From: Bacteroidota bacterium
GTDB lineage: Bacteria; Bacteroidota; Bacteroidia; Palsa-965
Reading direction: 5' to 3'
Length of the DNA stretch: 64,000 bases
NCBI GenBank assembly: GCA_013288325.1
Contig: JABDCB010000004.1
Span: forward strand, 4,485-68,484
Shown: piece after piece, positions 5,110 to 32,526 of the stretch
How positions within the stretch are numbered: the stretch's first letter is position 1
Layout of the letters: every line of letters begins with the position of its first letter
Notes under the pieces: generated by a model
Databases searched by the model: none
Told to the model about the DNA's origin: nothing
Seen by the model: only the letters and a program-made list of their open reading frames with translations
Program-made: the position numbers and the translations under genes

Positions 5110-5177
5110 GTTTCCGACAATCTATACTCAGCAACAAAGAAGCAATCTCTTTTTAGCTGACGGATACTGACTATTAT

Positions 5178-6425: not shown

Positions 6426-6451
6426 TTCACCCTGTTTAAGAAGCTGTATCC

Positions 6452-15733: not shown

Positions 15734-18700
15734 AGAACTTTTTTGCCGTCTACAGAAATCCCGTTTCCGTCCTGCTCCTGCTCATTATTATAGGAGGGCT
15801 TTTTGCATACAGCAAAATGCAGACGGCTTTGTTTCCGGAAATCACCTTTCCGAAAATAAAGCTGATTGCGGATAATGGAGAACAGCCGGTAGAGAAGATG
15901 ATGGTGACTGTTACCAAGCCTCTTGAAAATGCACTCAAAGAAGTCTATAATGTGCACATGATCCGCAGTACCACCAGCCGGGGAAGCTGTGAGATATCGG
16001 CGTTTCTGAATTGGAACGCAGATGTTTTTCAGAGTCAGCAGCTGATGGAAGACAAGGTAAACCATATCCGCAATATCCTTCCTCCCAATACATCCATCAG
16101 CATAGAAAAAATGAATCCCTCGCTGATGCCGGTGATGGGATTTACCGTTGAAAGCAACGAAAAAAGTCTGATCGAATTAAAGCTCCTTGCCAATACCGTT
16201 ATCCGCCCTTTCTTTTCCCAGGTAGATGGGGTATCGGCCGTAAAAGTAATCGGTGGTAAAACAAAAGAGTACTGGATAGAACTGAATCCCCAGAAGATGA
16301 GTTCTTTTTCGGTTACCCCGGCCATGATTAATACCGTGCTGGGTCAAACAAACTTCATCAGCTCCAACGGTTATTCTTCCGACTATCGCCGTCTTTACCT
16401 CAATATTACCGATGCCGCCCTGCACAATAAAGAAGAAATAGAAAATGTAGTGATCCGCAATGACGGTAAAAGAGTGATACGGCTGAAGGAAATGGCTTCG
16501 GTGAATGTGAGGGAGAAAACAGAATACATACGAATCAATGCCAATGGCAAAGAGGCGGTATTGATAACCGTGCAAAAACAGCCTTATGCCGATTTGCTCG
16601 AAATTTCAAAACACATTGATGAAAAAGTAAAGGCGCTGAAAGATGTACTTCCCAAAAGCGTAATTGTCAAACCCTATTACGATCAAAGCGATTTTGTAAA
16701 TACCACCATAAAAAGTGTCAATGACAGCCTCTGGATTGGTTTGCTATTGGCCATCATTGTTGCCGTTATCTTTCTCCGCTCTTTCAGGGCCAGCCTCACC
16801 ATCCTTATCATTATCCCTGTTACGCTAGCCCTTACCGTTCTGGCCCTTTATCTCTGGGGATATACGTTTAACATCATGACATTGGGAGCCATCGCTGCCT
16901 CCATAGGACTCATCATCGACGATGCCATTGTGGTGGTGGAACAGATCCATCGTACCCAGGAAGAACATCCGGAAGACAATACCACCGAAGTAGTTTCCAA
17001 ATCCATTCGTTACCTCCTTCCATCCATGATAGGCTCCTCGTTGAGCACCATTGTCATCTTTCTTCCCTTTATATGGATGACCGGTGTGGCGGGATCTTAT
17101 TTTCATGTGCTCACCAATACGATGATTATTACTTTGCTGTGTTCATTCTTTGTTACCTGGATCTGCCTGCCGGTGGTATACATTTTATTTTCCGGTAAGG
17201 GTAAAACAAAGAAAACACATACTCCCCCCAAACCAGCACACACAGGCAACTGGGCTTCCTTTTTTCTTAATCGTCCGCTCATTGGTATTCTGATTGCGGT
17301 GTTCATGATAGGATCTCTTGTTTACGTATATCCTCGTCTGGAAACCGGTTTTCTCCCAGAGATGGATGAAGGAAGTATCATACTGGATTATAAATCGCCT
17401 CCCGGCACATCGCTGGATGAAACAGATCGCATGCTGCGTGAAGTAGAAAAGATTATTGTGAAAATTCCGGAAGTGGCCGATTACTCGCGCAGGACAGGAA
17501 CGGAAATGGGATTTTTTGTTACTGAACCTAACAAAGGCGATTACCTGATTCAGTTAAAAGATAAGCGTACAAGGAGTACAGAGGAAGTGATCAATGATAT
17601 ACGCAAACAGGTGGAATCCACACAGCCTGCACTGAAAGTAGATTTCGGTCAGGCAATAGGCGATGTGATAGGCGATCTGATGAGTTCTGTGCAACCCATA
17701 GAAATAAAGATCTACGGAAAAGACAAAGAGAAGCTGGCCGGGCTCGCCGATGATGTGGCCAACCTGGCCAAAGGTGTAGAAGGTACTGCCGATGTTCAGA
17801 ACGGAATTATTATTGCCGGCCCCGGAGTGGATATAAAACCTAATCTGGCCAAGCTGGCACAATATAATATAGGAGCCGATGATTTTCAGTTTCAGCTGGA
17901 GAGCCAGCTGGAAGGAAATACCGCAGGAAGTATTCTGGAGAATGAGCAGATGACCGACATCAGGCTTATCTATCCCAATACCCGGCGTGCCGGGATAGAC
18001 AAGCTAAAAGGCACCTATATCTTTTTACCCAATGGCAAACTGAAACCGGTTACCGATTTTGCCAATATCAGTATTGAACCCGGTGTGGCGGAGATCAACA
18101 GAGAAAACCTGCAGTCCATGGTAGCTGTTACGGCCCGCTTAAACAACCGTGATTTGGGCAATGTAATAAAAGACATCAAGGAAAAGATCCGCACCAAACT
18201 GCATTTGCCCGAAGGGTATCGCATTGCCTATGGAGGTGCATTTGCCGAACAGGAAAGCTCGTTCCGGGAGCTTCTGATGATCCTCATCAGCGCCAGCTTG
18301 CTGGTCTTCTGTACCATCCTGTTTCTGTTCCGCGATTTCCGTGCCGCACTCCTTATCCTGTTTATTTCTGTTGCGGGAACAGCCGGAAGTTATATTGCTT
18401 TATTTTTAACCCATACTGCGCTTAACGTAGGAAGCTACACCGGTCTTATCATGATTGTAGGTATCATAGGCGAAAATGCCATTTTTACTTTTCAGCAATT
18501 CAGAGCCAATCTGCAAACAGGTGATACGAGCCAGGCTATTTCGTATGCTATTTCAACACGTCTGAGACCTAAACTCATGACAGCATTTGGCGCCATCATT
18601 GCTCTTATGCCACTCGCATTGGGTATTGGTACCGGTGCAGAATTGCATCAGCCCTTGGCCATTGCAGTAATAGGAGGCTTTGTGGCAGCGCTGCCGTTGC

Positions 18701-18747
18701 TGCTTATTGTGTTTCCTACTTTGCTTAAATTGGTTTATCGGAAATAA
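15730..18747 (+). CDS. efflux RND transporter permease (AcrB/CzcA superfamily)
   Basis: 1005 aa with two large periplasmic loops and ~12 TM helices. The OMP-MFP-RND gene order resembles CzcCBA-type heavy-metal exporters; substrate not determinable. Confidence 0.92.
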   Translation: MKNFFAVYRNPVSVLLLLIIIGGLFAYSKMQTALFPEITFPKIKLIADNGEQPVEKMMVTVTKPLENALKEVYNVHMIRSTTSRGSCEISAFLNWNADVFQSQQLMEDKVNHIRNILPPNTSISIEKMNPSLMPVMGFTVESNEKSLIELKLLANTVIRPFFSQVDGVSAVKVIGGKTKEYWIELNPQKMSSFSVTPAMINTVLGQTNFISSNGYSSDYRRLYLNITDAALHNKEEIENVVIRNDGKRVIRLKEMASVNVREKTEYIRINANGKEAVLITVQKQPYADLLEISKHIDEKVKALKDVLPKSVIVKPYYDQSDFVNTTIKSVNDSLWIGLLLAIIVAVIFLRSFRASLTILIIIPVTLALTVLALYLWGYTFNIMTLGAIAASIGLIIDDAIVVVEQIHRTQEEHPEDNTTEVVSKSIRYLLPSMIGSSLSTIVIFLPFIWMTGVAGSYFHVLTNTMIITLLCSFFVTWICLPVVYILFSGKGKTKKTHTPPKPAHTGNWASFFLNRPLIGILIAVFMIGSLVYVYPRLETGFLPEMDEGSIILDYKSPPGTSLDETDRMLREVEKIIVKIPEVADYSRRTGTEMGFFVTEPNKGDYLIQLKDKRTRSTEEVINDIRKQVESTQPALKVDFGQAIGDVIGDLMSSVQPIEIKIYGKDKEKLAGLADDVANLAKGVEGTADVQNGIIIAGPGVDIKPNLAKLAQYNIGADDFQFQLESQLEGNTAGSILENEQMTDIRLIYPNTRRAGIDKLKGTYIFLPNGKLKPVTDFANISIEPGVAEINRENLQSMVAVTARLNNRDLGNVIKDIKEKIRTKLHLPEGYRIAYGGAFAEQESSFRELLMILISASLLVFCTILFLFRDFRAALLILFISVAGTAGSYIALFLTHTALNVGSYTGLIMIVGIIGENAIFTFQQFRANLQTGDTSQAISYAISTRLRPKLMTAFGAIIALMPLALGIGTGAELHQPLAIAVIGGFVAALPLLLIVFPTLLKLVYRK

Positions 18748-18901: not shown

Positions 18902-20836
18902 ATGATAAAAAAGTTACTCTTCTTCTTTTCTTTGTTGCCTGTTTTCCTGTCGGCCCAGCAGGAGAGCCCGGAAACGGTACAATGTTCTCTTATTGAAGCC
19001 GAAATGAAAGCCCATATGGCTTTGCATCAGGCCGCTTCTGTAGGATTTCTGAATGATTATAACCTCATTTATCACCGTTGCGAATGGTCTGTTGATCCCG
19101 CAGTTAATTTCATCCAGGGCGCTATCACCTCCTATTTTAAACCTACCGTAAACGGATTCACCCAGGTTCATTTTGATATGAGTGATTCGTTGAGGGCCGA
19201 CTCTGTGCTATATCATGGAATGCCCATCACTATCCAGCATAGCAACAATATTCTTTGTATCAATCTGCCTGCTGTAGTGCCTTTGAATCAGACCGATTCG
19301 CTTTGTGTGTATTATCATGGCGTTCCTCCGGCAACAGGCTTCGGTTCTTTTTATCAGGGAACACATGCCGGCGCACCGGTTATCTGGACCCTATCAGAAC
19401 CTTATGGCGCCCGCGACTGGTGGCCAAGCAAACAAAATCTGATTGATAAAATTGATTCCCTCGATGTATTTGTAACATGCCCTTTGGGAAATCTGGTTGC
19501 CGGTAATGGTACATTGGTATCGGACATTACAAACGGAAGCAACAAAACAGTTCACTGGAAAACCAGATACCCCATTGCCGCTTACCTCGTTGCCATTGCC
19601 GTTACCAATTACGTTTCCTATTCTAATTACATACATCTGAATTCGGGACCAGATTCGATGCAGATATTGAATTATGTTTATCCAGAAGATCTCGCTCTGG
19701 CACAAAGCAGCACTCCTCAGATCATTAAAACAATTGCTTTGTACGACAGCCTCACCATTACCTATCCGTTTAGCCGTGAAAAATACGGTCATGCCGAATT
19801 CGGCTGGGGTGGTGGTATGGAACATCAGACGATGAGTTATGTAGGTGGTTTTTCCAATGTGCTTATTTCACACGAATGTGCACATCAATGGTTTGGCGAT
19901 AGGGTTACATTAGCCAGCTGGCATGATATATGGCTCAATGAAGGCTTTGCCACGTATTTTGAAGCCCTCACAGAAGAACGTTACTTTCCTCAAAACTGGC
20001 TTAACTGGAAAAAAAGCACCACTACCGATGCCATGAATTCACCTAACGGATCGGTATGGGTAGATGATACCACCAGCGTGCCTCGTATATTCAGTGGAAG
20101 TCTCAGCTATTCAAAAGGATCGTACCTGTTGCATATGCTACGTTGGAAGCTGGGAGATCAGCTTTTCTTCCGTTCCTTACAAAACTATCTGAACGATACC
20201 ACCCTGGCTTATCGCTATGCACATACTTCGGATTTGCAACGGCATTTGGAAAATACCAGCGGACAAAATCTCAGCAATTTCTTTACCCAATGGTTTTATG
20301 GCAAAGGATTTCCAAGCTATCAGGTTACCTGGGGACAAACGGGACATACCCTCAGCATCACCCTGGGTCAAACCCAGAGCGACCCGTCCGTAGCGTTCTT
20401 TGAAATGCCTGTACCTATTGAATTTACCGGAGAAGGGCATGATACCACGCTTGTTCTCAATCACACCTATTCGGGACAGGTATTCACCGCCAATCTGAAT
20501 TTCATTGCGGAATATGCATTTTTCGATCCCGATCTGCATATTCTTTCCGGAAACAATAAAGTGCAAACCATACAGAGCCCGGGAGCTATGGCTTCTCTGT
20601 TCAGTTTATATCCCAATCCTGCCTCCGGCAGTATGCAGGTACTGAATATGAATCCATCTAATCCGGTTAGCAGCATAGAACTCTATGGTATTCCAGGCAA
20701 TGTAATCCGCTCCTGGCAGGTATCAGGAAATCAAAACCTCAACAGCATCGATCTCACCGGTATTGCATGCGGCTTATATGAACTGAGGATAAAAACCGAT
20801 CTCGGTTTTGTGGTGAAAAAGCTGGAAGTAAAATAA
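18902..20836 (+). CDS. M1-family zinc aminopeptidase with T9SS C-terminal sorting domain
   Basis: HECAHQWFG...WLNEGFATY (HExxH-18-E), signal peptide, and a C-terminal ~80 aa (LYPNPASGSM...VVKKLEVK) typical of T9SS cargo. Confidence 0.9.
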   Translation: MIKKLLFFFSLLPVFLSAQQESPETVQCSLIEAEMKAHMALHQAASVGFLNDYNLIYHRCEWSVDPAVNFIQGAITSYFKPTVNGFTQVHFDMSDSLRADSVLYHGMPITIQHSNNILCINLPAVVPLNQTDSLCVYYHGVPPATGFGSFYQGTHAGAPVIWTLSEPYGARDWWPSKQNLIDKIDSLDVFVTCPLGNLVAGNGTLVSDITNGSNKTVHWKTRYPIAAYLVAIAVTNYVSYSNYIHLNSGPDSMQILNYVYPEDLALAQSSTPQIIKTIALYDSLTITYPFSREKYGHAEFGWGGGMEHQTMSYVGGFSNVLISHECAHQWFGDRVTLASWHDIWLNEGFATYFEALTEERYFPQNWLNWKKSTTTDAMNSPNGSVWVDDTTSVPRIFSGSLSYSKGSYLLHMLRWKLGDQLFFRSLQNYLNDTTLAYRYAHTSDLQRHLENTSGQNLSNFFTQWFYGKGFPSYQVTWGQTGHTLSITLGQTQSDPSVAFFEMPVPIEFTGEGHDTTLVLNHTYSGQVFTANLNFIAEYAFFDPDLHILSGNNKVQTIQSPGAMASLFSLYPNPASGSMQVLNMNPSNPVSSIELYGIPGNVIRSWQVSGNQNLNSIDLTGIACGLYELRIKTDLGFVVKKLEVK

Positions 20837-20890: not shown

Positions 20891-20897
20891 GGTGGTG

Positions 20898-20981
20898 TGC
20901 CCGAGGAGAGACTCGAACTCTCAAGGATATAACTCCAACGGCTTCTGAGACCGCAACGTTTACCAATTTCGCCACCCGGGC
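20898..20981 (-). tRNA. tRNA-Leu (anticodon CAG), type II with long variable arm, no encoded CCA
   Basis: The reverse complement folds by hand. Acceptor GCCCGGG/CTCGGGC; anticodon loop CTCAGAA; T-arm GAGAG-TTCGAGT-CTCTC; variable stem GGA/TCC. The discriminator A is followed by CAC. Confidence 0.88.
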
Positions 20982-21024: not shown

Positions 21025-21107
21025 TGGTGCCCAGGACGAGACTCGAACTCGTACGGTTGCCCGCCACCCCCTCAAGATGGTGCGTCTGCCAATTTCGCCA
21101 CCTGGGC
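21025..21107 (-). tRNA. tRNA-Leu (anticodon GAG), type II, CCA encoded
   Basis: Acceptor GCCCAGG/CCTGGGC; anticodon stem CCATC/GGTGG with loop TTGAGGG; T-arm ACGAG-TTCGAGT-CTCGT; 3' ACCA. Confidence 0.9.
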
Positions 21108-21124
21108 CTAAAAATTTAGGATTG

Positions 21125-21132
21125 CAAAGATA
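21125..21132 (-). promoter_or_regulatory. -7 promoter box (TATCTTTG on the minus strand) for the tRNA-Leu pair
   Basis: Exact TAnnTTTG match 18 nt upstream of the tRNA 5' end. Confidence 0.4.
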
Positions 21133-21275
21133 TATCTTTTTCCGATTTTATACATAAATTCTATGTTTTAAGGCTTTTGAAGGGTTTTATGGTCAAAAAT
21201 CAACTTCTGCTCTGACTTTTGTCATTTTTTTCCGTCCTCCGGCTACTGAACTTTGTATAAACAAATTCAAAAGCC

Positions 21276-21461
21276 ATGAAAAGCAAACTGCCAGTTTATA
21301 TTATTGGACTCATCCTTATTGCTGTTCCATTTAAAATAGCATTCTTGACTCCTTCTTCCTCTTTCTTTGTCAATATTGCCTCTTTTCTGTCGGTTCTTAC
21401 CGGCTTTTTGGTGATACTTCTAGGTGGTGCCAGCGATGGTCAGGAACATGAACATTCTTAG
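21276..21461 (+). CDS. possible small two-helix membrane protein
   Basis: 61-aa ORF with two hydrophobic segments and an acidic/His tail (SDGQEHEHS). No other support. Confidence 0.3.
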   Translation: MKSKLPVYIIGLILIAVPFKIAFLTPSSSFFVNIASFLSVLTGFLVILLGGASDGQEHEHS

Positions 21462-21612
21462 GAGTTTTCTTCCTCATTTATTACCAATCAGCTGATTTAC
21501 AAGCACAAGTAATTGTGCTAAAGATATAGTTGATTTGAGTATCCTGTTCGTTTCTCTGATGCTTTATCATGGAATAACAGATTCCTCATCTACCATTCCG
21601 CCATTCTGAGGA

Positions 21613-21822
21613 ATTTCCGGGCATAGTAGTACAACTGCTAAGCATTCGTATACGATTACTAAGTATTTTCATACGACTGCCAGGTTTTCTATTCCCACTT
21701 CTAAATATTCTGATACCACTCCAAGGCTTTTCATTTCAACTGCCAGGCATTCATATACCACTACCTCGCGGATCAATACAACTACCTCGACTTCTTATAC
21801 AACTGCTTCGCATTCCGTTACC
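21613..21822. repeat. tandem array of a degenerate 21-bp unit (9 clear copies plus 1 degenerate), consensus about ACTGCYAAGCATTCNTATACC
   Basis: Copies start at 21634, 21655, 21676, 21697, 21718, 21739, 21760, 21781 and 21802. Eight begin ACT and one ATT; most end ATAC(N). A weaker copy lies at 21613-21633. The phase is strictly 21 bp with no spacers. Confidence 0.9.
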
Positions 21823-22053
21823 ATCTGTGTAAATAGCATCCATATCCGGTAAGAAACGGTTTGTGTTGCAAGGAATTTCTGGCAGAATTGTAAAGCAAAA
21901 GGTATGCCTTTTACCCGAGCCTCTTATGAATGTGTAAAAGGAACAGAGATCTATATCTTACACGCCCTCCTTCACTTTCCAACTGTTCAAAATTTGATAT
22001 ATTTACGTTGATTATTCAACCCTTTCATACTAATCCGCAAACCCTAAATCCCT

Positions 22054-23106
22054 TTGTCGCAGGTAAATGAAGATCTGATACGGAGAGTTTTTGAGGAAAT
22101 GGTCAAACACAAACCTGCTCTTGCCAAATATCTGGCAGCAGATGAAGATGACCCTTCCGAAACGGTGGATACCCGTGTCCTGGCGGATATGATTATCAAA
22201 CATTTTCCATGGCCCATAGGCGTGGAGCTGAGAAGATTATTCTCCGGTTCCATGCGTCAGCTGGACAGGGGCCGTCTGGATCAGCTTTTTAAAACGATAG
22301 AACGGACCATTCAGTTTCTCAGCTTTGTGATGCTGGCTCAGCTGTGGGAAGAGAAAATAAAACGAAAATTTGATTTCCCCAAGGAGTATGCTTCCCAGTT
22401 CAAGAATAGGATTTCAGTCCTTTCTCTTGGTAATTATACCTGGTTGATACGTGCCACGGGCAATCTGTTTGAATCGCTGGAGATAGACCCTTTCATGCCC
22501 GAAATGAAAGAGATGCTTCACAAAAAATTGTATGAAGCTCTTGATTTCTGGGTACCGGAGCGAAATGAAATCGGGCATTACCAGATTAATCTGACGGATG
22601 AAGAAATACAAAAACGCTGTGTAGAATATGAGGATAAGCTCACGTTTATTCTTCAAAACATTTCGTTTATCGTAAAGTATAAACTGGTTACCATCCGCGA
22701 AATCAAAGTACTGAAACAAAAACACAAAGAGCCCCGCTTTAACCATATCATGGATCTGTTGAATAATTCCGATTCGGATTTTAAAGCCACGGAAATGCAG
22801 CACGATGTTTTTGCCGATAGCAACTCGGTATTGCTCATGAAAGATTTTAAGGTGCCGGAAGAATTTTTGAATCTGAGTCCACTGATCATTGATACCCGTC
22901 CCGAAATAATCGATTCTAAAGAGAAATTCAATCTCAAGAAAGATATTTTCATGTACACCAAATTCAGCAATGATAAGCTGATGTATGTGGGTACGGAGGT
23001 GACGGAGAAATGTGACCTCAGTTATCTGAGCAATTATCCCGTCCTGGTAGAGCAGTTCAAAGAATTGCTTACCGCTTTTGCTGCACCTGAAACGATCAAT
23101 TCCTAA
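22054..23106 (+). CDS. hypothetical protein with HEPN-like Rx4H motif (helical N-half, mixed C-half); first gene of the STAND module
   Basis: 350-aa ORF. ERNEIGHY at residues 169-176 (nt 22558-22581; the RNEIGH core is residues 170-175, nt 22561-22578) fits the HEPN RNxxxH pattern. The stop lies 5 nt before the next start. Start uncertain (TTG 22054 or ATG 22099). Confidence 0.78.
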   Translation: MSQVNEDLIRRVFEEMVKHKPALAKYLAADEDDPSETVDTRVLADMIIKHFPWPIGVELRRLFSGSMRQLDRGRLDQLFKTIERTIQFLSFVMLAQLWEEKIKRKFDFPKEYASQFKNRISVLSLGNYTWLIRATGNLFESLEIDPFMPEMKEMLHKKLYEALDFWVPERNEIGHYQINLTDEEIQKRCVEYEDKLTFILQNISFIVKYKLVTIREIKVLKQKHKEPRFNHIMDLLNNSDSDFKATEMQHDVFADSNSVLLMKDFKVPEEFLNLSPLIIDTRPEIIDSKEKFNLKKDIFMYTKFSNDKLMYVGTEVTEKCDLSYLSNYPVLVEQFKELLTAFAAPETINS

Positions 23107-23111
23107 GCATC

Positions 23112-26000
23112 ATGCAGGGCAGCCCGTTCAAGTTTCTGGATAGCTTTACAAAGGAAGACAAGGATATTTTCTTCGGGCGCGACCGGGAAATAGAAGAAAT
23201 CTATTCCCGTGTTTTCCAAAGCAACCTTTTGCTTGTATACGGTGCTTCGGGAACGGGTAAAACAAGTCTTATCCAATGTGGTCTGGCCAATAAGTTTAAT
23301 GATTCCGACTGGCTTCCTATTCTCATCCGCCGCGGAAGCAATATACTTACATCCATACGGGCTCAGCTGGAGCATCTGGCCATTACACCCATTAAAGAAG
23401 GGGCTTCGTTAAAAAAGTCGATCGAGTCCCTTTATCTGGATCATTTCAAACCGGTATATCTCATATTTGATCAGCTGGAAGAGCTTTTTATTTTCGGATC
23501 CCCGGACGAGATCGGCGGTTTTGTGACGGAAGTAGCAAAGATTTTAAAGTCCGATTTGCAGTGTAAATTCATTTTCATTATCCGCGGCGAATACCTCGAA
23601 CACCTGAGTGTATTTGAAGAAAAGGTTCCCGAATTTTTCAGCAACCGGATACGGATTGAAAAGATGACACGTCTGCACGCCGCAGAAGCCATTACAGGTC
23701 CTTGCCGTAAAGCAAACATTGGTCTTGATCCAGGGTTTGAATTGAATTTTCTGGAGATGCTTTGTCCCGGCAAAGCCGAAGTGGAACTCACCTACCTCCA
23801 GGTTTTTCTCGATAAGCTGTATAAGAAAGCTGTTCAGAAAAATGCGGCCCATCCTGTTTTTACCAATGGACTGTTAAAAGAAACGGGACAGATCAGCGAC
23901 GTGCTATCCGATTTCCTGGAAGAACAGATAGCACGTATCCCCGACTCGGAAGCTGCACTGGCGGTGCTGAAAAGCTTTGTATCCATGGAGGGTACAAAAC
24001 GACAGGTTGATATAGAGGAGATTGAAAAGTTTGTAAGAACACTGGGCAAACAGCTGCCTCTGGAAACCATAGAAAAGCTGGTGCACCAGTTTGTGGATCT
24101 ACGCATTTTACGTGATAAGGATGAGTCGGGCAAATATGAGTTACGTCACGATTCCCTGGCGGTAAAGATCTATGAAAAGATTACCCTGGTTGAAAAAGAT
24201 CTGATAGAGGTGAAAACGCTGATTGAAAATGCGTATTCCAATTATCTGAAGCGACATATTCTCATTCATGAAAGCGATCTGGCCTATATAGCACCTTATG
24301 AGCGCAATCTATTTTTAAGCGAGAAGCTGCAGCAGTTTCTGGATGATAGTAAACGTGCTTCTACGCAGACAAAAAGACGCAGACGACTTGCCTTATTTAT
24401 CGTAACTGGTGTGGCATTTGCGGTACTGAGTGGTTTTACCATCTGGGCCATGAGCGAACGGACCCATGCCATGGAACAAAGCCATGAAGCGGAGAAACAA
24501 AAAATGCTGGCTGAGCAGGAAAAGAATGAAGCCCTCCGATCTAAAGATGAAGCAGTAAAGGCCAATGAGCAGGTGATGCAGGAAAAACTGATTGCGGAGA
24601 AAAATGAGCAGTCGGCATTGGCTGCCAAACAACTGGCCGACAAGGCCAAACAGCAAGCCATGACTGCCATGAATGAGGCGGAAAGAGAAAAAGGGAACGC
24701 CATGTCTCAATCCGAGATTGCAAAAAAAGAAGCATTGAATGCAGAAGCTCAGAAAGAGATAGCCAAAAAAGAAAAAACAAAAGCTGAAGAGTCGGAGAAA
24801 AAAGCACGAAAAAGTTTTGTGCTTTCACTGGCTCAGGGCATAGCCCTGAAGACTCCCCTCTATAAAAATGATCTTCAGCTGGAAGCATTATTAGCTTATC
24901 AGGCTTACAAACTGAATAAAGACAATAACGGACCTGCTCAGGATCCGGTGATCTTTGATGCCTTAAGATCCGCGTTGGGAGCTCCTGACAAACAAAAAGT
25001 AAATCCGGACATAGGGTTTGTACAAACCAATGAATTCATAGCCCTGCAGGAAAGAAACGATACCCTTGTATATGCTGCCCGAAGCGGTTTCATATTCGGA
25101 GTGGATAAAAACAAGCCTTCTTCCTTTACCATCGCAAAGTTGCTGAGCTATCGCTTTTCAATCGATAAACTCTTTTTTAATGCCACAGGCAATTATATAG
25201 TGAGCTCGCATGTAAACAACAGTCTTTGTTTATGGACCCAGCAGCTTCACAATACCGCTCCCGCCTTTCAGGAGTTAACCGGGCATAAAGGTCTTGTCAG
25301 ATCTCTGGCATTCAATACCCGTTCCGATCTTTTTGCAAGCGGAGGAAAAGACAGCCTGCTTATTATCTGGTCCTTACAATCCGGAAAAGCTGCACAGCTC
25401 AAAACAATTAAATTGAATGCTGCCGTCAAGAAACTGGTTTTCTCGAAAGATGAAAGTCAGCTCTTTTGTCTGCTCGAAAACGGCACGATACAACAACTGG
25501 ATCTGAAAACATATACCTATATCCCCTACCCGTACGCAGGCACATCCAAACCGATGGAGATCGCATTGAACCGGAAGAAAAACAAATTGTTGCTTGGACT
25601 GGCCAATGGAAATTTGTGGTCGGAAGATCTGGATACCCACACGCATAGTGATTACAGAGCCCATTTGAGTGGCATTGATTTCCTGGTATTCAATAAAGAT
25701 TACAGTATGCTGGCATCAGCGGGATCGGATCGTACCCTTAAAATTTATGATGCCGATAACCTGGAAAGCAGTCCTATCTCGATTAAGGATCTTCATTCCA
25801 AAGCAAGGGCCATTATATTTACCACCGGCAACCAGCTTTTTGTAGCCTGTGCCGATATCAAAAGCTATCTGATAGAAACATCTTGCGACAGGATGGCTGC
25901 ATCCATTTATCAAACGCTGAAAAGGAATATGACTCAGGACGAGTGGGCTAAGTTTTGTAAAGATGTGACGTATGAAAAAACAAGACCAGATCTGCCTTAA
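23112..26000 (+). CDS. STAND-type P-loop NTPase (nSTAND/NACHT-like) with single TM helix, coiled coil and WD40 repeats
   Basis: N-terminal PFKFLDSFTKEDKDIFFGRDREI; Walker A GASGTGKTS; Walker B VYLIFDQLEE; YELRHDSLA; KRRRR plus a TM helix; K/E/A/Q coiled coil; WD40 blades (LTGHKGLVRSLAF...GGKDSLLIIWSL and AHLSGIDFLVF...AGSDRTLKIYD). Confidence 0.9.
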   Translation: MQGSPFKFLDSFTKEDKDIFFGRDREIEEIYSRVFQSNLLLVYGASGTGKTSLIQCGLANKFNDSDWLPILIRRGSNILTSIRAQLEHLAITPIKEGASLKKSIESLYLDHFKPVYLIFDQLEELFIFGSPDEIGGFVTEVAKILKSDLQCKFIFIIRGEYLEHLSVFEEKVPEFFSNRIRIEKMTRLHAAEAITGPCRKANIGLDPGFELNFLEMLCPGKAEVELTYLQVFLDKLYKKAVQKNAAHPVFTNGLLKETGQISDVLSDFLEEQIARIPDSEAALAVLKSFVSMEGTKRQVDIEEIEKFVRTLGKQLPLETIEKLVHQFVDLRILRDKDESGKYELRHDSLAVKIYEKITLVEKDLIEVKTLIENAYSNYLKRHILIHESDLAYIAPYERNLFLSEKLQQFLDDSKRASTQTKRRRRLALFIVTGVAFAVLSGFTIWAMSERTHAMEQSHEAEKQKMLAEQEKNEALRSKDEAVKANEQVMQEKLIAEKNEQSALAAKQLADKAKQQAMTAMNEAEREKGNAMSQSEIAKKEALNAEAQKEIAKKEKTKAEESEKKARKSFVLSLAQGIALKTPLYKNDLQLEALLAYQAYKLNKDNNGPAQDPVIFDALRSALGAPDKQKVNPDIGFVQTNEFIALQERNDTLVYAARSGFIFGVDKNKPSSFTIAKLLSYRFSIDKLFFNATGNYIVSSHVNNSLCLWTQQLHNTAPAFQELTGHKGLVRSLAFNTRSDLFASGGKDSLLIIWSLQSGKAAQLKTIKLNAAVKKLVFSKDESQLFCLLENGTIQQLDLKTYTYIPYPYAGTSKPMEIALNRKKNKLLLGLANGNLWSEDLDTHTHSDYRAHLSGIDFLVFNKDYSMLASAGSDRTLKIYDADNLESSPISIKDLHSKARAIIFTTGNQLFVACADIKSYLIETSCDRMAASIYQTLKRNMTQDEWAKFCKDVTYEKTRPDLP
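23241..23267 (+). other. Walker A P-loop of the STAND NTPase
   Basis: GASGTGKTS, codons checked against the nucleotide sequence. Confidence 0.9.
24387..24452 (+). other. single predicted transmembrane helix of the STAND NTPase
   Basis: LALFIVTGVAFAVLSGFTIWAM, preceded by KRRRR. The positive-inside rule places the NTPase in the cytoplasm. Confidence 0.75.
25029..25886 (+). other. WD40 beta-propeller region of the STAND NTPase
   Basis: Repeated GH...(S/A)(G/A)(G/S)xD..(I/L)..(W/Y)(D/S) blade signatures. Boundaries approximate. Confidence 0.7.
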
Positions 26001-26012
26001 ATCAATAACCGC

Positions 26013-27194
26013 ATGAACCTTAGAACCACGCTTACGGAATCAAGGATTGTCAGGTTTATTATTATATGCCTGCTTGTTTTGTTTTGCAACAGGACGGTGG
26101 TGGCACAAAATGGAGTGGCCCGTGCCATTTCCGATTTCAATTCTATTTCTGAACAATATCTTCAGAGTGCTCAGGAACTGTTTAATAATGGTGATTATGA
26201 TTCCTGTATTGCTGTTCTCAACAACGGGCTTAAGGTAAATATGTTTGACCGGAAAGGGAATGAAGACATGTTATGTCTGAAGACGAAAACCTACCTGGAA
26301 AAAGATGATCTGAAAGATGCGGAAAAAACAATGAAACAGTTGCTCGAATACAATCCGCATTATGAACTTATCGAGTCTCAAAACACCGAAGATTTTAACC
26401 GGCTTTTCAAACAATTCGATGTCCATGCCAAGCTTACGTTCGGCATCCGAAATACACTTATGTTTCCGGCCCTTAAAACTACTGCCATTTATAGTGCTGT
26501 TCCGGATTATAATTACACAGCCCCTTATAACACGGCCAAATACTTTCTGATGTATTATGGCTGGGCCGAGTATCAGTTCAGAGATAATATCTCCATCAAT
26601 ATGGAAGGCGTATACTGGAGCCTGTCATACAGCCGTAATATGGCTCTTACCACCAATACCACACTGAATATGAATGAGCAGATGCATATTTATGAAATCC
26701 CTGTTTTTGCCCGTTTTTATATGCCCCACAATATGAATATCCCTTTTCTGAAAAATATTTTGCCCTATGCAGCTTTTGGAATCGGTTATCTGCATCTGAA
26801 AGATGCTACGGCCAATTTTAATGAATATGTTATCAATCCATCCACCGGTTATTTAACCAGCAATAGCTATGCAAACGGCGTAAACATGATGAATATGCGG
26901 GCTGCAAACACCTTTGAATGGGTATATGGTTTGGGAATAGGGTATAAAATAAAAAATCTGAGATTATACCTCGACTGGAGAGCTTATGCAGCCATGAATA
27001 CATTGACTGATGCGAGTAAAAGAACCAACAACGTTGACCTGTATAACTACTATTCCTATGTAGACAATGGTATCAAACTGAATAAATCGGAAATAGGTGC
27101 TTCGATTTCATACACCCTGAAAAATTCGGTAAAGAAGAAATCGATCAAAAAAAGCCACACCATCGTGCAGGGTGCTTATAAAGTGAATAAATAA
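26013..27194 (+). CDS. signal peptide + TPR-like helical region + outer-membrane beta-barrel protein
   Basis: Hydrophobic N-terminus ending VVAQ. Then a ~100-aa helical region (AQELFNNGDYDSCIAVLNNGL...AEKTMKQLLEYNP). Then ~250 aa of Tyr/Gly/Asn-rich alternating strands (WVYGLGIGYKI, LYLDWRAYAA). Starts 12 nt after the NTPase stop. Confidence 0.75.
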   Translation: MNLRTTLTESRIVRFIIICLLVLFCNRTVVAQNGVARAISDFNSISEQYLQSAQELFNNGDYDSCIAVLNNGLKVNMFDRKGNEDMLCLKTKTYLEKDDLKDAEKTMKQLLEYNPHYELIESQNTEDFNRLFKQFDVHAKLTFGIRNTLMFPALKTTAIYSAVPDYNYTAPYNTAKYFLMYYGWAEYQFRDNISINMEGVYWSLSYSRNMALTTNTTLNMNEQMHIYEIPVFARFYMPHNMNIPFLKNILPYAAFGIGYLHLKDATANFNEYVINPSTGYLTSNSYANGVNMMNMRAANTFEWVYGLGIGYKIKNLRLYLDWRAYAAMNTLTDASKRTNNVDLYNYYSYVDNGIKLNKSEIGASISYTLKNSVKKKSIKKSHTIVQGAYKVNK

Positions 27195-27196: not shown

Positions 27197-29065
27197 TCAG
27201 AATCGTATTCCGATAACGAGTACATCATCGGTTTGCTCCTGCTCTTCTTTCCACTCTTTCAAATAATTTGCCAGAAATGTTCCCTGCTCCTTCATGGATA
27301 GATTGCGGATAGAAAGCAACACCTCTTTCCATTTGGAAGACTTGAGTTTCTTCCCTCCTTTTCCAAACTGATCGGAATACCCATCGCTGAAAACATATAC
27401 GATGTCGCCGGCTTTCATCTCGAACGAATGTGTTTCAAACTGTTGTTCATCCGGGGTATAACCACCTATGGCCACCTTGGTAGCTTTTATTTCTTCCATT
27501 GCCAGGGCTTCTTTTCTCAGGATCCACAAGGGTCTGTTGGCTCCTGCATAATACAGCATGGTTTTACCGGAAGCGGATGAAAGATGCAACAAGGCAATAT
27601 CCATTCCATCGCGCGTTTCTCCTTCCTGTCCGCTCTGCCCCAATGCTTTCTTCATTCCCTGATTAAGCTGACGGAGTATTTCTCCTGCTTTCCTGCTTTT
27701 CATCAGGGCCTCATTCAGCTTTTCATAGCCCAGCATACTCATAAATGCACCCGGAACACCATGACCGGTACAATCAACCGCTGCTAAATAACAAGCATCC
27801 TCTCTTTGATCTATCCAGTAAAAATCTCCGCTGACAATATCTTTGGGTTGAAAAAAGATAAAACTATCGGGAGCCGTTTTTTGCAACATACCCGGTCGTG
27901 GTAGTATAGCCTGCTGGATACGTTGTGCATAATTAATACTCGCTGTGATATCCTTGTTTTTTTCTTCTATACTGTCGTATGCCGATTTCAGCTCTACATT
28001 TTTGAGGCGGTGAATTTCTGCTTCCTGTTCAGATCGTTCAACGGCAAAAGCGATCTGCTGATTTTTAAGCCGGTTGCCCGATTCAGCATTCAATACTTCT
28101 TCTTTTAATGCATGAAAAGCGCGGAAATGATTCAATGCCTCTTTTGCATTACCCTGCTGTTCATACAAAGCTGAAAACAGGGAATGGATTTCATATAACA
28201 AAGGTTTGGCCTGCAGTGCATCTGCAATCTGTTTTGCTTTCTCCAGTTTTTCTATCCCCTGTTCAGGATCCGACATAGCCAGAGCATGATTGGCAAAGCC
28301 CAGCAAACAATATAAGGCAAGACGTTTATCCTTATCACCGGTATTCAGCGTTTGACAATGCTGATAATAGAAAAGCGCTTTTTCCGGATCCTGTTGTTTT
28401 TCGTATAGCGATGCCAAACCCAGATAGCTCCACGGCAGGGCACCCATTTCTTTAAGCTCTTCCCGAAGGTTGATGCTTTTCCAGTAATAGTCGAGCCCGT
28501 TTTTAAAATCGCCTTTGGCCGTATAGGTTCTGGCAATCATATTTAACGATGATGCTACGGCTTTGAGATCGGGAATCGATTCGCGTATGCGCATACTTTT
28601 CTGGTACGATTCCAAAGCATGATCATAATCGGCTATGCGGAAATAGATGGTGCCTGTGGTGCTCAATATATCGCCAAGGCCTTCCTGATTACCGATAGAC
28701 TCGCCTATTTTAAGTCCCCGCTGACACGCTTCCAACCCTTTATCATACTGTCCGTAGGTATCATATACATTTCCAAGATAATTCAGAGCACGTAGCTGAC
28801 CCAGGGCTTCGTGTGTATGATCAAAATAATGGAGGGATGCTGTCAGATCAAGAAGCATGGAGTCCTGTTCCTGAGAGCGTAAAAAAGCACAAACTCCTTC
28901 ATATAAGCGGGCGTAAGCAACTCCCCGTTCGTATCCTATAACTTCCGATTGTTTATGCGCTTGCTTTGCCTGTTCCAGCGCTTTTGAAGTATCACTGTAT
29001 CTCCACGACCATGCCTGCTCGTTCATGGCGTCAATCCGGCTAATATCCTTCCCTGGCTCTGGCAC
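27197..29065 (-). CDS. cytoplasmic TPR-repeat SpoIIE/PP2C-family protein phosphatase
   Basis: N-terminal TPR repeats and a coiled coil. C-terminal PP2C motifs DIVSGDFYW, DCTGHGVPGAFMSM, SDGYSDQF, DDVLVIGIRF. Start uncertain (GTG 29065 or ATG 29026). Confidence 0.88.
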   Translation of the reverse strand: MPEPGKDISRIDAMNEQAWSWRYSDTSKALEQAKQAHKQSEVIGYERGVAYARLYEGVCAFLRSQEQDSMLLDLTASLHYFDHTHEALGQLRALNYLGNVYDTYGQYDKGLEACQRGLKIGESIGNQEGLGDILSTTGTIYFRIADYDHALESYQKSMRIRESIPDLKAVASSLNMIARTYTAKGDFKNGLDYYWKSINLREELKEMGALPWSYLGLASLYEKQQDPEKALFYYQHCQTLNTGDKDKRLALYCLLGFANHALAMSDPEQGIEKLEKAKQIADALQAKPLLYEIHSLFSALYEQQGNAKEALNHFRAFHALKEEVLNAESGNRLKNQQIAFAVERSEQEAEIHRLKNVELKSAYDSIEEKNKDITASINYAQRIQQAILPRPGMLQKTAPDSFIFFQPKDIVSGDFYWIDQREDACYLAAVDCTGHGVPGAFMSMLGYEKLNEALMKSRKAGEILRQLNQGMKKALGQSGQEGETRDGMDIALLHLSSASGKTMLYYAGANRPLWILRKEALAMEEIKATKVAIGGYTPDEQQFETHSFEMKAGDIVYVFSDGYSDQFGKGGKKLKSSKWKEVLLSIRNLSMKEQGTFLANYLKEWKEEQEQTDDVLVIGIRF

Positions 29066-29196
29066 GTGAAATGATGTTTCAACAAATATAGGGGATTATC
29101 AATCAGGCAAAAATCAGCATTATTCGTCTCTACTTAACCTCTAATAAATCCTTTTTTGATATATTTAGCCACTATTGCCAAGACACCCCATTGACT

Positions 29197-32100
29197 ATGC
29201 GTTTTATATTACGATTCTTCTGTTTTTTTCTGCTGCTGACAGCTCCTTCCTTATGCTTATTAGCTCAACCTGAGGATGTTAAATTTGAAAATATTCCATC
29301 TGAACAAGGGCTTTCGAATAAATCAATTCCAGCCATTATTGAAGACAAGCAAGGTTTTCTTTGGTTTGCTACCCAGGATGGACTGAATAAATATGACGGG
29401 TATGAGTTTAAGGTGTTTCAAAACGACCCGTCCGATTCCAACACCATTTCCAATAATAATATCTTTTGTCTTATACAGGATAAGGATGGATTTCTGTGGA
29501 TGGGTACAGAAAACGGAGGTCTTAATAAGTTTGACCCCCGCACGGAAAAGTTTACGCGGTTTATACACGACGAAGGCAATGCATCTTCTATCTGCAGCAA
29601 TAATATCTACAGTATCCTACAGGCCAAAAACGGAGATCTGTGGATCGGAAGCTGGGAAGCAGGCATTGATGTTATGGATCCTAAAACCGGGAAAATACTA
29701 AACCGCTATCATCACAAATCAGGAAAAGAAAATACCCTTTCCAATGGCGGTATCTGGAGCATATTTGAAGATGAAACGGGCATATTCTGGATCTCTACCT
29801 GGGGCAGCGGGCTTGATAAGCTTGATCCGGCAACCGGGCGATTTAAACATTTCCGCCACGACCCTAAAAACCCTTCCAGTATAAGCCATGACATCATTGG
29901 TCCTGTTTATGAAGATAAACATGGCCGTATATGGGTTGCCACCTGGGGCGGTGGATTAAACCTGCTGGACAGAAAAAAAGAAACATTCCGGAGTTTTCAA
30001 CATGCTGCCGATAATCCAAAAAGTATCGGAAGCAATCTGATCTGGCCTATAACCGAAGATTGGGAAGGTAATTTATGGGTAGGAACATATGGCTCCGGTG
30101 TTAACCGTTTTGATCCCCGGACAGAAAACTTTCACCGCTTTGCTCATGATGCCGATGATCCAACCAGTCTTAATCACAATGATGTCTGGTCGCTGCACCT
30201 CGATCGCTCCAATATTCTGTGGGTTGGTACCGAAGGTGGAGGCATAAGCAAATATGTCAATATCCGTAAAGAAGTAGATGTATATGCTTATGACCCGGGC
30301 AATCCGCTTAGTCTGGGTCATAATTCTGTTCGTGCAGTGCATGAAGATCAGGATGGTATCCTTTGGATCGGAACCTGGGATGGAGGACTTGATAAATATG
30401 ATCCATCGGTAGAGAAAATAAAAAATTACAAATTAGATGATAATGAAGAAGGCACTTCGGGATTAAACAAGATCAAATGCATTACAAGCGATCATACCGG
30501 AAGGCTTTGGCTGGGTACTTATCGTGGGGGGCTTTGTGAGTTTAATAAGAGTACGCAAACGTTTACCAACTACACCCACGATCCATCCAACCCCTCCTCC
30601 ATCAGCGACGATTATGTTTACTGTCTGGAAGAAGACAATCAGAATAATTTGTGGGTTGGAACACTCAATGGTCTCAATATTTTTGACCGGACATCAAAAA
30701 CGTTTACCCGTATTAAAAGTGATCCGGCCAATGAACACAGCCTGAGTAATAATACTATCAACACCATCTATCAGACCAAAGATGGCACTTTATGGTTCGG
30801 TACCGATTACGGACTGAACAAATATGACTACACCAAAAAATCGTTTACCCGGTTTCTGCATGAAGCACAGGACCCGCATAGCCTGAGCCATAGTACCGTT
30901 TATACCATCTATGAAGATAAAACCGGCATCTTATGGATAGGTACCCGAAACGGACTTAACAAATTCAATCCCGCTGATCATAGCTTTGAACATTATGATA
31001 CCAAAGACGGACTTCCGAACAGTATTATTATGTCTATACTGGAAGATGCAAAAGGAGATCTGCTTATCAGTACCAAAAATGGCATTTCCCGTTTTAATAA
31101 AGAACAAAAAACATTTATCAATTACGATCTCAGCGATGGTATACAGGGCCGCCAGTTTTTCCCTAATTCCTCCTGCAAGGCAAAAGACGGGAAACTTTAT
31201 TTCGGTGGCACAGAAGGACTCAACTCCTTTTATCCCGATCGTATACAAAATAACCCGTATATACCACCGGTTGTTATTACAAGCATAAAGAAATCGGGTG
31301 AAGAAATCCGTTTTGGAAAACTTATTGAGAATGTAAAAGAGCTTGTCCTCCCCTATCATGAAAACTCACTTTCTTTTGAGTTTGTTGGTCTCAGCTATGC
31401 CAACCCCGATGAAAATCAATATGCCTATAAGCTGGAAGGTGTTGATGAAGACTGGAAATACAGCGGAAATGTACGGGTAGCCAACTATTCCAATCTGAGA
31501 CCAGGCAACTACATATTCCGGGTAAAAGCCTCTAATGATGATGGGCTCTGGAATAACAAAGGCGCCAGTATCCGGGTTACCATTACTCCGCCTTTCTGGA
31601 AAACACTTTGGTTTTTTATTCTCTGTATTCTTCTCGGGTTGGTTCTTATATTTCTGTACATCAAGAACAGAGAGCGGAAATTATTAAAGGAGAAAAAGAT
31701 CCTGGAAGATAAGGTGGAAGAAAGAACCGCTGAGGTGATGACACAGAAAGAAATTCTTGAAACTCAGAATAAAGAGATCAGAGATAGTATTTTATATGCC
31801 AAACGTATTCAGGAAGCTATTCTACCGGCTCAGGAAGATGTGCTTCATGCTTTCCCTGACTCCTTTATTCTTTTCAAACCCCGTGATATTGTAAGCGGTG
31901 ACTTTTACTGGTTCTCCGAAAAAAATGGCAAAGCTATTGTGACAGCAGCCGATTGTACCGGACATGGCGTTCCGGGAGCCTTTATGAGTATGATAGGCAA
32001 TACCCTGCTCAATCAGATTGTAAATGAAAAAGGGATTGTAAAACCCGATGATATCCTGCTGCATCTGAGGGAGAATATCATGAAAAGTCTTAAACAAACC

Positions 32101-32526
32101 GGAGCCGAAGGTGAAAATAAAGACGGTATGGATATTGCGCTTTGTACCTACGATCTGAATACAAGGGAGCTGCAATTTGCAGGTGCTAACAACCCGCTTT
32201 ATATTGTCAGTAATGGGGAGTTATCGGAAATTAAAGGTGATAAACAGCCTATTGGTGTATACATGGGCGAACCCAAACCATTTACCTGTCAAACCGTACA
32301 GCTTCAAAAAGGAGATTGTGTTTATATTGCCAGCGATGGATATGCGGACCAGTTTGGCGGATCGCACGGCAAAAAATTCAAATACAAGCAAATGAAAGAC
32401 TTGCTGCTGGCTTTGAATGACAAAAAAATGTCTGAACAACGTATCACCCTCAACGAAGAAATTGAAAAATGGAAGGGCACGCTTGAACAGGTGGATGATA
32501 TCCTTGTTATCGGTTTCCGGGTTTGA
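29197..32526 (+). CDS. periplasmic beta-propeller (two-component-regulator propeller + Y_Y_Y) sensor fused via one TM helix to a SpoIIE/PP2C phosphatase
   Basis: Signal peptide; many W(I/V)GTxxGGLxxFD blades; YAYKLEGVDEDW; TM helix LWFFILCILLGLVLIFLYI. The PP2C motifs are the same as in the neighbouring paralog (DIVSGDFYW, DCTGHGVPGAFMSM, DDILVIGFRV). Confidence 0.9.
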   Translation: MRFILRFFCFFLLLTAPSLCLLAQPEDVKFENIPSEQGLSNKSIPAIIEDKQGFLWFATQDGLNKYDGYEFKVFQNDPSDSNTISNNNIFCLIQDKDGFLWMGTENGGLNKFDPRTEKFTRFIHDEGNASSICSNNIYSILQAKNGDLWIGSWEAGIDVMDPKTGKILNRYHHKSGKENTLSNGGIWSIFEDETGIFWISTWGSGLDKLDPATGRFKHFRHDPKNPSSISHDIIGPVYEDKHGRIWVATWGGGLNLLDRKKETFRSFQHAADNPKSIGSNLIWPITEDWEGNLWVGTYGSGVNRFDPRTENFHRFAHDADDPTSLNHNDVWSLHLDRSNILWVGTEGGGISKYVNIRKEVDVYAYDPGNPLSLGHNSVRAVHEDQDGILWIGTWDGGLDKYDPSVEKIKNYKLDDNEEGTSGLNKIKCITSDHTGRLWLGTYRGGLCEFNKSTQTFTNYTHDPSNPSSISDDYVYCLEEDNQNNLWVGTLNGLNIFDRTSKTFTRIKSDPANEHSLSNNTINTIYQTKDGTLWFGTDYGLNKYDYTKKSFTRFLHEAQDPHSLSHSTVYTIYEDKTGILWIGTRNGLNKFNPADHSFEHYDTKDGLPNSIIMSILEDAKGDLLISTKNGISRFNKEQKTFINYDLSDGIQGRQFFPNSSCKAKDGKLYFGGTEGLNSFYPDRIQNNPYIPPVVITSIKKSGEEIRFGKLIENVKELVLPYHENSLSFEFVGLSYANPDENQYAYKLEGVDEDWKYSGNVRVANYSNLRPGNYIFRVKASNDDGLWNNKGASIRVTITPPFWKTLWFFILCILLGLVLIFLYIKNRERKLLKEKKILEDKVEERTAEVMTQKEILETQNKEIRDSILYAKRIQEAILPAQEDVLHAFPDSFILFKPRDIVSGDFYWFSEKNGKAIVTAADCTGHGVPGAFMSMIGNTLLNQIVNEKGIVKPDDILLHLRENIMKSLKQTGAEGENKDGMDIALCTYDLNTRELQFAGANNPLYIVSNGELSEIKGDKQPIGVYMGEPKPFTCQTVQLQKGDCVYIASDGYADQFGGSHGKKFKYKQMKDLLLALNDKKMSEQRITLNEEIEKWKGTLEQVDDILVIGFRV

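Follow-up and report, generated by a model that had tools for sequence, protein, structure and literature searches.

Can a STAND NTPase place its sensor on the outer side of the inner membrane, and which output would such a receptor serve? This question is raised by a gene in a 64,000-bp stretch of DNA from a Bacteroidota bacterium (assembly GCA_013288325.1, contig JABDCB010000004.1, positions 4,485 to 68,484 of the forward strand), referred to here as the window. The gene (23112..26000, + strand, ATG start) encodes a protein of 962 amino acids (aa), hereafter the STAND protein, in which an nSTAND1 NTPase, a transmembrane (TM) helix, a stalk and a WD40 propeller follow one another, and it is the middle gene of an operon with an upstream gene for 350 aa (U350) and a downstream gene for 393 aa (D393). 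We consider it probable, with considerable room for doubt, that this operon encodes a three-part trans-envelope system with U350 in the cytoplasm, the STAND protein in the inner membrane and periplasm, D393 in the outer membrane, and cytoplasmic outputs that are interchangeable between related systems. A first-pass annotation of the locus, made from the sequence alone, had described the anatomy of the STAND gene, which held up, and had missed the three-gene operon and the candidate effector upstream.

Architecture and membrane orientation of the STAND protein

Residues 5–349 (23124..24158, + strand) matched the Pfam family nSTAND1 (PF20703, E = 3.7e-38, 132.6 bits at a cut-off of 27.1), so that the NTPase module is a member of the nSTAND1 clade named by Kaur, Iyer, Burroughs & Aravind 2021 (PMC8195603). 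The first-pass annotation had likewise recognized an nSTAND-type NTPase from residue 5 onwards by its lead-in motifs PFKFLDSF (residues 5–12) and FFGRDREI (20–27), and had concluded that no effector is fused to the polypeptide; since the profile already begins at residue 5, this also holds, and a candidate effector is found instead in U350. Walker A (GASGTGKTS, residues 44–52, 23241-23267), the winged-helix motif (YELRHDSLA, 342–350, 24135-24161) and the basic patch KRRRR (421–425) lie exactly where they had been placed, and only Walker B (YLIFDQLEEL, 23457-23486) had to be moved by one residue, from 115–124 to 116–125; all three motifs of the module are on the + strand. Among 31 orthologues, G44, S46, G47, G49, K50, and S52 of Walker A, D120, Q121, E123, and E124 of the Walker B core LIFDQLEE (117–124) as well as E343, L344, R345, H346, and D347 were invariant. 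The latter form a winged-helix RHD (MHD-type) histidine motif, which follows the helical domain as in Apaf-1 (AlphaFold2 model, Foldseek). We take RHD (345–347) to be the positional counterpart of the histidine (MHD/LHD) by which Apaf-1 and plant NLRs hold ADP, and by analogy it may be functionally equivalent to this ADP sensor. Searches against NCBIfam and PADLOC revealed no meaningful match for the STAND protein, the sole PADLOC match being mad8, restricted to the P-loop (residues 18–55, E = 1.2e-4).

The basic patch is directly followed by a single hydrophobic helix (residues 426–447; patch and helix at 24372..24452, + strand), which ends in the conserved motif LSGFTIWA. As had been proposed, it is the only one in the protein: the Kyte-Doolittle profile has a single peak at 426–444 (2.31 over 19 residues) and no second peak above 1.6, and the segment comprises 22 uncharged, uniformly hydrophobic residues without amphipathic character. 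A protein search resulted in 2797 homologues, the best 120 of which were used for orthologue statistics. These derive from metagenome bins of Bacteroidia, Bacteroidales, and Chitinophagales, are named merely 'hypothetical' or 'WD40 repeat protein', and are nearly all full-length with the same layout (896–981 aa, 119 of 120 within 946–981 aa; 39–70% identity), which is much more agreement than chance would give. In all 120, a hydrophobic helix begins at residue 425–448, with exactly one in 119 cases, and the mean net charge of the 15 residues on its N-terminal side is +5.95 vs +0.37 for the 15 residues on its C-terminal side. At the end of the helix, F442 and A446 are invariant, and L439, S440, and W445 are conserved in at least 90%. 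In addition, a scan of species-representative genomes revealed 309 loci, of which the best 80 were retained for all locus counts given below. A survey of the TM arrangement and of the flanking genes had been suggested with the first-pass annotation; in these loci, the helix was found at 424–461 in 90 of 97 STAND reading frames with protein lengths from 690 to 1558 aa, the remaining seven being fragments of 234–350 aa or disrupted genes. Judged from its sequence and conservation, the segment looks like a true membrane span.

An AlphaFold2 model of the STAND protein computed from 31 orthologues (mean predicted local distance difference test score, pLDDT, 80.4) displayed an N-terminal NTPase, helical and winged-helix part, an unbroken helix running through the hydrophobic segment (404–507), a second long helix (523–584), short neck helices, a propeller, and two helices at the C-terminal end. 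The propeller (residues 639–925, 25026..25886, + strand) is composed of 27 strands forming seven blades at 642–921 with a pLDDT above 90, and WD40-type Pfam matches cover 639–925, in good agreement with the c. 640–925 read by eye before. It is preceded by the helical neck (571–638, 24822..25025, + strand) and followed by the helical tail (926–962, 25887..25997, + strand). Using Foldseek, the top full-length matches of the model in the PDB were structures of Apaf-1 (3shf, 3j2t, 5juy, and 3sfz, E of about 2e-20), and Dark (8y6p) was also among the best.

Between helix and neck lies the predicted periplasmic stalk (residues 448–570, 24453..24821, + strand), for which a coiled coil at c. 450–570 had been suggested. 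Its character as a helix rich in A, E, K, and Q was borne out (19% Ala, 18% Glu, 17% Lys, and 9% Gln at 450–570), and a canonical a/d heptad was rejected, as only one heptad position is conserved and hydrophobic: this position is Ala in 90% of the cells of an alignment of 31 orthologues, with mostly polar residues at the others. The series (446, 453, 467, 474, 481, 488, 495, 502, 516 ... 565) spans 18 heptads in one phase and starts with A446 inside the TM helix. Furthermore, the distance from residue 448 to 575 amounts to either 127 or 120 residues in the 31 orthologues, a difference of exactly one heptad. Since length and phase are fixed, we suggest a ruler or transmission element rather than a floppy linker. 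If the c. 123 residues formed one continuous helix, the stalk would measure about 18 nm (1.5 Å per residue), comparable to the 180 Å of GldM/PorM.

Conservation declines along the protein. Mean identity to the window protein was 66% for the NTPase core, 55% for the helical and winged-helix part, 41% for TM helix and neck, 36% for the stalk, and 30% for the propeller, the fastest-evolving part, and even the closest orthologue shares 55% of its propeller vs 84% of its NTPase core. In five loci (L052, L063, L066, L078, and L079), tandem arrays of two to four nSTAND1-TM paralogues with differing ectodomains accompany a single U350 gene. Gradient and arrays together indicate a pattern of constant switch and variable sensor. 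One further locus carries divergent duplicate U350–STAND pairs (L025, 3362-1785 and 5798-8707).

Because there is a single span, NTPase and propeller must be located on opposite sides of the membrane. An N-in orientation is indicated since the NTPase needs cytoplasmic nucleotide, no N-terminal signal peptide is present, and the charge asymmetry fits. Additional hints came from paralogues: in L057, L063, and L066 the part after the helix consists of a short coiled coil with GldM_3rd and GldM_4th domains (E of about 1e-18), in L052 of a GldM_1st domain (E = 7e-21), and in others of one to three propellers with or without TPRs; the window protein itself gave no GldM match in Pfam. GldM/PorM is anchored by one TM helix and its GldM domains are periplasmic (PMC5790014), which, together with the outer-membrane barrel gene downstream and a cysteine pair in the tail, argues for the same orientation. 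With regard to the cysteines (alignment positions 933 and 958), 17 of 18 orthologues possessing the first also possess the second, and both are missing otherwise, as would be expected for a disulfide; this we regard as soft evidence for a periplasmic location. The pair occurs in most Bacteroidales-type orthologues and in the separate WD40 protein of a related system (L088, see below), not in the window protein. A cytoplasmic NTPase and a periplasmic propeller, as predicted in the first-pass annotation, are thus well supported by sequence features. The L052 paralogue (4777-6984) differs in having three hydrophobic helices before GldM_1st. In GldM, this domain adjoins the GldL motor helices, which suggests by analogy that some family members could contact the T9SS (type IX secretion system)/gliding motor itself.

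The U350–STAND–D393 operon and the U350 domain family

U350 (22054..23106, + strand, TTG start) ends 5 nt before the STAND gene, and D393 (26013..27194, + strand) starts 12 nt after it; at the corresponding junctions in annotated related contigs, the genes overlap by 4 nt. By tblastn, U350 was detected directly 5' of the STAND gene in about 70 of 80 loci, missing essentially only at contig ends, and D393 directly 3' in about 45 of 80. The three-gene operon is conserved in Bacteroidota, from which all retained loci derive except one in a bin labelled Chloroflexota (L040, JBLNAO010000168.1). The latter harbors the full set of TPR-SpoIIE, U350, STAND, and D393 genes at Bacteroidales-like identity, so its label is probably a binning error rather than a sign of horizontal transfer.

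D393 revealed a hydrophobic, signal-peptide-like N-terminus ending in VVAQ, weak TPR matches in a short region, and a sub-threshold barrel match only (TDE1717, E = 1e-6), and 10 of 16 orthologues matched OMP_b-brl_2 (PF13568, best E = 1e-14) and 8 of 16 OMP_b-brl (PF13505). We therefore predict D393 to be an outer-membrane beta-barrel protein, putatively coupled to the STAND gene in translation. On the opposite strand follows a gene for a 622-aa TPR-SpoIIE protein with a PP2C phosphatase domain (27197..29065, - strand). Its homologues (37–69% identity) are direct neighbors of the operon in some 22 of the 80 loci, located downstream and convergent in the clade of the window and upstream and divergent in Bacteroidales, and it is a possible fourth component of the system.

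U350 belongs to no family of Pfam, NCBIfam or PADLOC and is more strongly conserved than its neighbor, with identities of U350 vs STAND in the same loci of 96 vs 70%, 90 vs 62%, 82 vs 58%, and 64 vs 42%, and a mean column identity of 73% over 26 sequences. Its model (pLDDT 76.7; predicted template modelling score 0.81) consists of a helical domain (1–208), a beta domain (210–311), and a C-terminal helix, and U350 is the predicted cytoplasmic partner of the STAND protein. An exhaustive profile search identified 828 representative clusters of the U350 domain. Apart from standalone forms of 330–350 aa, the domain was found at the C-terminus of CHAT (caspase-like) proteins of c. 575–640 aa, the largest fused group, of AraC proteins with a helix-turn-helix (HTH), and of AraC-HTH proteins with an additional adenylate/guanylate-cyclase domain. 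The motifs PWPIGxELRRL, RLxQLxKTxER, and LNLSPLIIDT are common to all forms.

For five fused relatives, the genomic context was looked up. A CHAT-U350 gene (P0293) overlaps by 4 nt with the nSTAND1 gene behind it (L081, L082). Behind an AraC-cyclase-U350 gene (P0258) comes a gene for an nSTAND1 protein of 952 aa that contains KKRRGRRR, a TM helix at 433, and WD40 repeats (L083). An AraC-U350 gene (P0246) precedes a disrupted nSTAND1-TM-WD40 gene, after which an OMP_b-brl_2 gene is located (L084). Among the four genes downstream of a second CHAT-U350 gene (P0317, L088), the architecture is divided into a soluble tandem nSTAND1 protein, a separate TM-WD40 protein with basic patch, TM helix, coiled coil, neck, WD40 propeller, and Cys-pair tail, and a D393-like protein. 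In the fifth case (CHAT-U350 P0290, L089), located on a 2.6-kb contig, the next gene begins 15 nt further on and is cut at 81 aa, which makes it unclassifiable. A distant standalone member (P0343) likewise precedes an nSTAND1-like gene (L085). The gene order of the fused relatives indicates that the trans-envelope layout is kept and the cytoplasmic output swapped. Altogether, the U350 domain is probably a dedicated partner of nSTAND1 proteins. In L085 (849-3229), a STAS-domain gene and a gene for a ParE toxin lie ahead of the U350-like gene; PP2C phosphatases of the RsbU/SpoIIE type usually have STAS proteins as their substrates, and this STAS gene recalls the PP2C neighbor of the main family.

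A candidate for the output at the window locus is the sequence RNEIGH of U350 (residues 170–175, 22561..22578, + strand), which resembles the catalytic Rx4H motif of HEPN domains. In 32 standalone members with identities down to 23%, R170 and N171 of the surrounding motif ERNxIxHY are invariant and H175 is conserved in at least 90%. RNxxxH is the common form of the HEPN Rx4-6H signature (PMC3710099). Among the weak Pfam matches of these 32 members, HEPN was the sole recurring theme, with nine matches to five HEPN families (RiboL-PSP four times, Swt1 twice, and Apea, MAE_28990, and Csm6; best E = 5.5e-4); one further HEPN match had E = 1.8e-4. Of the 54 standalone representatives, 39 contain the motif, vs none of 68 fused ones; it is thus lost exactly where another output domain is fused, as would be expected if it served the standalone forms as catalytic output. 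Judged from these motif data, RNxxxH probably marks a HEPN-like catalytic RNase output of standalone U350.

Proposed mechanism and alternative explanations

Based on these data, we propose the following course of signaling. A rigid stalk of fixed length would hold the propeller far from the inner membrane and near D393, perhaps docked on the TPR-like head of the latter, where it may bind an envelope-derived or extracellular ligand or detect a change in its outer-membrane partner. Stalk and TM helix, both of them conserved, would relay this change to the nSTAND1 module in the cytoplasm. This module is presumed to act as a STAND nucleotide switch that is ADP-bound and held off by the RHD histidine until nucleotide exchange and oligomerization occur. 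The activated, probably oligomerized NTPase would then engage U350 as its output subunit. At the window locus, the output would be RNA cleavage at the HEPN-like site, leading to growth arrest or reprogramming; in sister systems it may be proteolysis (CHAT), transcription (AraC HTH) or cyclic-nucleotide synthesis (cyclase). The domain anatomy and its conservation, the linkage of the genes, the distribution of the motif, and the modularity of the outputs were observed directly; in the scheme built on them we infer the orientation, which is strongly supported, as well as the contacts, the direction of the signal, the RNase activity, and the trigger.

Several observations weigh against this scheme. 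The stalk has a pLDDT below 50 at 452–525, so a hairpin would be possible instead of a single long helix. All HEPN matches stay under the curated Pfam thresholds, and none was obtained for U350 of the window itself. The U350 model found no HEPN or other structure in the PDB using Foldseek (best E of about 1), a negative result that is not strong given the weakness of the method on helical bundles and the low confidence of the model around RNxxxH (pLDDT 59–66); profile searches against PDB sequences returned nothing either. Finally, the strong conservation of U350 and the lack of homologues in plasmid and phage collections would be unusual for a toxic effector.

What such a system is used for can be read in two ways. 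Its strong conservation, its chromosomal, non-mobile context, the AraC and cyclase outputs, and the PP2C neighbors speak for ordinary envelope signaling. A conflict or immune role would be in line with HEPN-like and CHAT outputs, the fast-evolving sensor, the paralogue arrays, and the occurrence of nSTAND1 in predicted conflict systems (PMC8195603). If so, the operon would encode an NLR-like immune receptor surveying the periplasm, with a propeller that recognizes an invader while it is still at the envelope and nothing has entered the cytoplasm; we treat this as a tentative idea, on present data rather doubtful. Candidate invaders would be phage tail or ejection proteins, contact-dependent or type VI secretion system effectors, or predatory enzymes, and the response would come from the HEPN RNase or, in sister systems, from the caspase-like CHAT protease, the transcription factor or the cyclase. 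Tandem paralogues behind one constant U350 would then represent a receptor array with multiple specificities.

Other explanations differ in what U350, the stalk or the hydrophobic segment would do. U350 might be a regulatory adaptor, a scaffold or an upstream input, with the real output elsewhere, e.g., in the TPR-SpoIIE phosphatase acting via partner-switching. The homologues of this phosphatase beside the operon, the toxin-atypical conservation of U350, and its missing structural match to HEPN would all suit such a role, and the persistence of the core motifs PWPIGxELRRL and LNLSPLIIDT in fused forms that lack RNxxxH would make docking or regulation the primary role of the domain. However, RNxxxH is invariant in standalone forms and its loss upon fusion of another output (39 of 54 vs 0 of 68) is what one would expect of a catalytic output site, most loci lack the PP2C neighbor, and PP2C paralogues are numerous in Bacteroidota, with a second one in the window, so that we consider this explanation unlikely. 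It is more improbable still that the protein serves as a mechanical tether or energizer in the manner of TolA, TonB or GldM, with NTP hydrolysis acting on the barrel or on the T9SS/gliding apparatus. In favor of such a device, the protein has an anchor in the inner membrane, a long helix that is rich in A/E/K and constant in length, and a C-terminal domain, with an outer-membrane protein gene next to it, and TolA domain II is similarly rich in Ala, Lys, and Glu; GldM domains occur in paralogues, and PorV and T9SS-cargo genes lie near the operon in one context. However, STAND NTPases are switches and not motors, the propeller is the least conserved part, unlike a structural interface, and the fusion of the partner domain to AraC HTH, cyclase, and CHAT in relatives indicates that information flows into cytoplasmic outputs.

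The least probable alternative by far is that the hydrophobic segment does not cross the membrane at all, being a peripheral anchor or a buried helix of a cytoplasmic, Apaf-1-like STAND protein that senses cytoplasmic ligands with its propeller. The neck and WD40 arrangement and the overall fold do match the cytoplasmic proteins Apaf-1 and Dark, and classical WD40 repeats are rare in the periplasm. Against this stand the uniform hydrophobicity of the segment and its strong positive-inside asymmetry, the conservation of the helix across every architecture, the periplasmic GldM domains at the same position in paralogues, the coupled outer-membrane barrel gene, and the co-varying tail cysteines.

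Relation to known systems and genomic neighborhood

Described nSTAND1 proteins belong to predicted conflict systems and carry EAD or Death-like adaptors and soluble FGE/CLec sensors (PMC8195603, PMC10907252). The window protein shares the lead-in PxKFLxxY...FFGR, Walker A and B, and the winged-helix histidine motif with this clade; unlike its described members, it has no adaptor, contains a membrane helix, a predicted periplasmic stalk, and a propeller, and is encoded together with a family-less partner gene and an outer-membrane partner. With Apaf-1 and Dark it has the order of NTPase, winged-helix domain, helical region, and WD40 propeller in common. Apaf-1, however, is soluble, with a fused N-terminal CARD and two propellers for a cytosolic ligand, whereas in the window protein the membrane and a stalk of c. 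120 residues lie between sensor and switch, and the output is a separate polypeptide. Avs1-5 and bNACHT proteins share the STAND logic, the variable C-terminal sensor, and the activation of effectors by oligomerization, with HEPN-like and protease effectors among them; in contrast, the window system is without a PADLOC system match and a fused effector and is located outside of any defence island, plasmid or phage. For TM-containing bNACHTs, multiple TM regions and a 'likely' sensing of intramembrane or periplasmic signals are mentioned in passing; a single-pass form bearing an extracytoplasmic propeller is not described for them.

With GldM/PorM, the window protein shares a single, predicted N-in TM anchor, an elongated periplasmic part, which would measure about 18 nm, and a distal domain directed towards an outer-membrane partner. 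GldM, however, has no NTPase in the cytoplasm and is powered by GldL and the proton-motive force, and GldM domains are missing from the window protein. A cytoplasmic domain, one TM helix, and an extracytoplasmic propeller or sensor are also found in single-pass receptor kinases such as PknD of M. tuberculosis and in single-pass anti-sigma factors; the logic of the topology is the same, but the cytoplasmic module of the window protein is a STAND NTPase switch. As for U350, RNxxxH in a helical domain and the weak HEPN model matches are shared with HEPN RNases (PMC3710099), unlike which it possesses an additional conserved beta domain (LNLSPLIIDT), and the domain survives without the motif when fused to other outputs. 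EACC1 (Kaur 2020), considered as a possible 'constant component', was rejected as a counterpart, being a single-TM domain paired with caspases in actinobacteria.

In the literature searched, which left most subscription-journal papers outside its scope, no description of the U350 domain or of the operon was found, and a 2026 census of 589 STAND clades contains no mention of sensing at the membrane or in the periplasm. The first-pass annotation had asked whether the family might be a characterized one; it is common, yet no name, model or paper describing it was found. With over 2,700 sequences and 309 loci in species-representative genomes, it is abundant and wholly unannotated. Altogether, the system is real, conserved, and undescribed, with an architecture like that of an Apaf-1 split by a membrane. 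To our knowledge, all characterized prokaryotic STAND/NLR-like receptors sense cytoplasmic ligands. If the proposed scheme is true, an Apaf-1-like switch would span the inner membrane and carry its sensor close to the outer one, and an unnamed partner domain would couple it to at least four outputs (HEPN-like, CHAT, AraC HTH, and cyclase). This provides a testable model for STAND activation driven from outside the cytoplasm, defines U350 as a new protein domain family, and links STAND signaling to the envelope of Bacteroidota and to GldM-type periplasmic modules.

The genes around the operon in the window encode an RND pump, an M1 peptidase, tRNAs, and PP2C phosphatases and do not constitute a defence island; in relatives, the wider context varies between lineages and is also of the housekeeping rather than the defence type. 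By eye, an RND-type efflux pump (15730-18747, + strand) and an M1-family zinc peptidase (HExxH...E; 18902-20836, + strand) with a tail resembling a T9SS sorting domain could be recognized. Between the peptidase gene and the operon lie two tRNA-Leu genes (20897-20981 and 21025-21107, both - strand) with the anticodons CAG and GAG, and a search against Rfam found these two tRNAs and nothing else. The 946 bp upstream of U350 (21108-22053) represent an unusually long intergenic region with neither a TAnnTTTG motif nor nucleotide similarity to the 80 loci. Its longest open reading frame (21276-21461, 61 aa) has two hydrophobic segments and no counterpart in related loci. Beyond the TPR-SpoIIE gene, a gene for an 1111-aa protein (29191-32526, + strand) encodes Reg_prop repeats, a Y_Y_Y domain, a TM helix, and a SpoIIE PP2C phosphatase domain, the latter being 41–42% identical to the PP2C domain of the adjacent 622-aa protein. 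Based on its domains, this protein is another predicted sensor with a periplasmic propeller and a cytoplasmic output.

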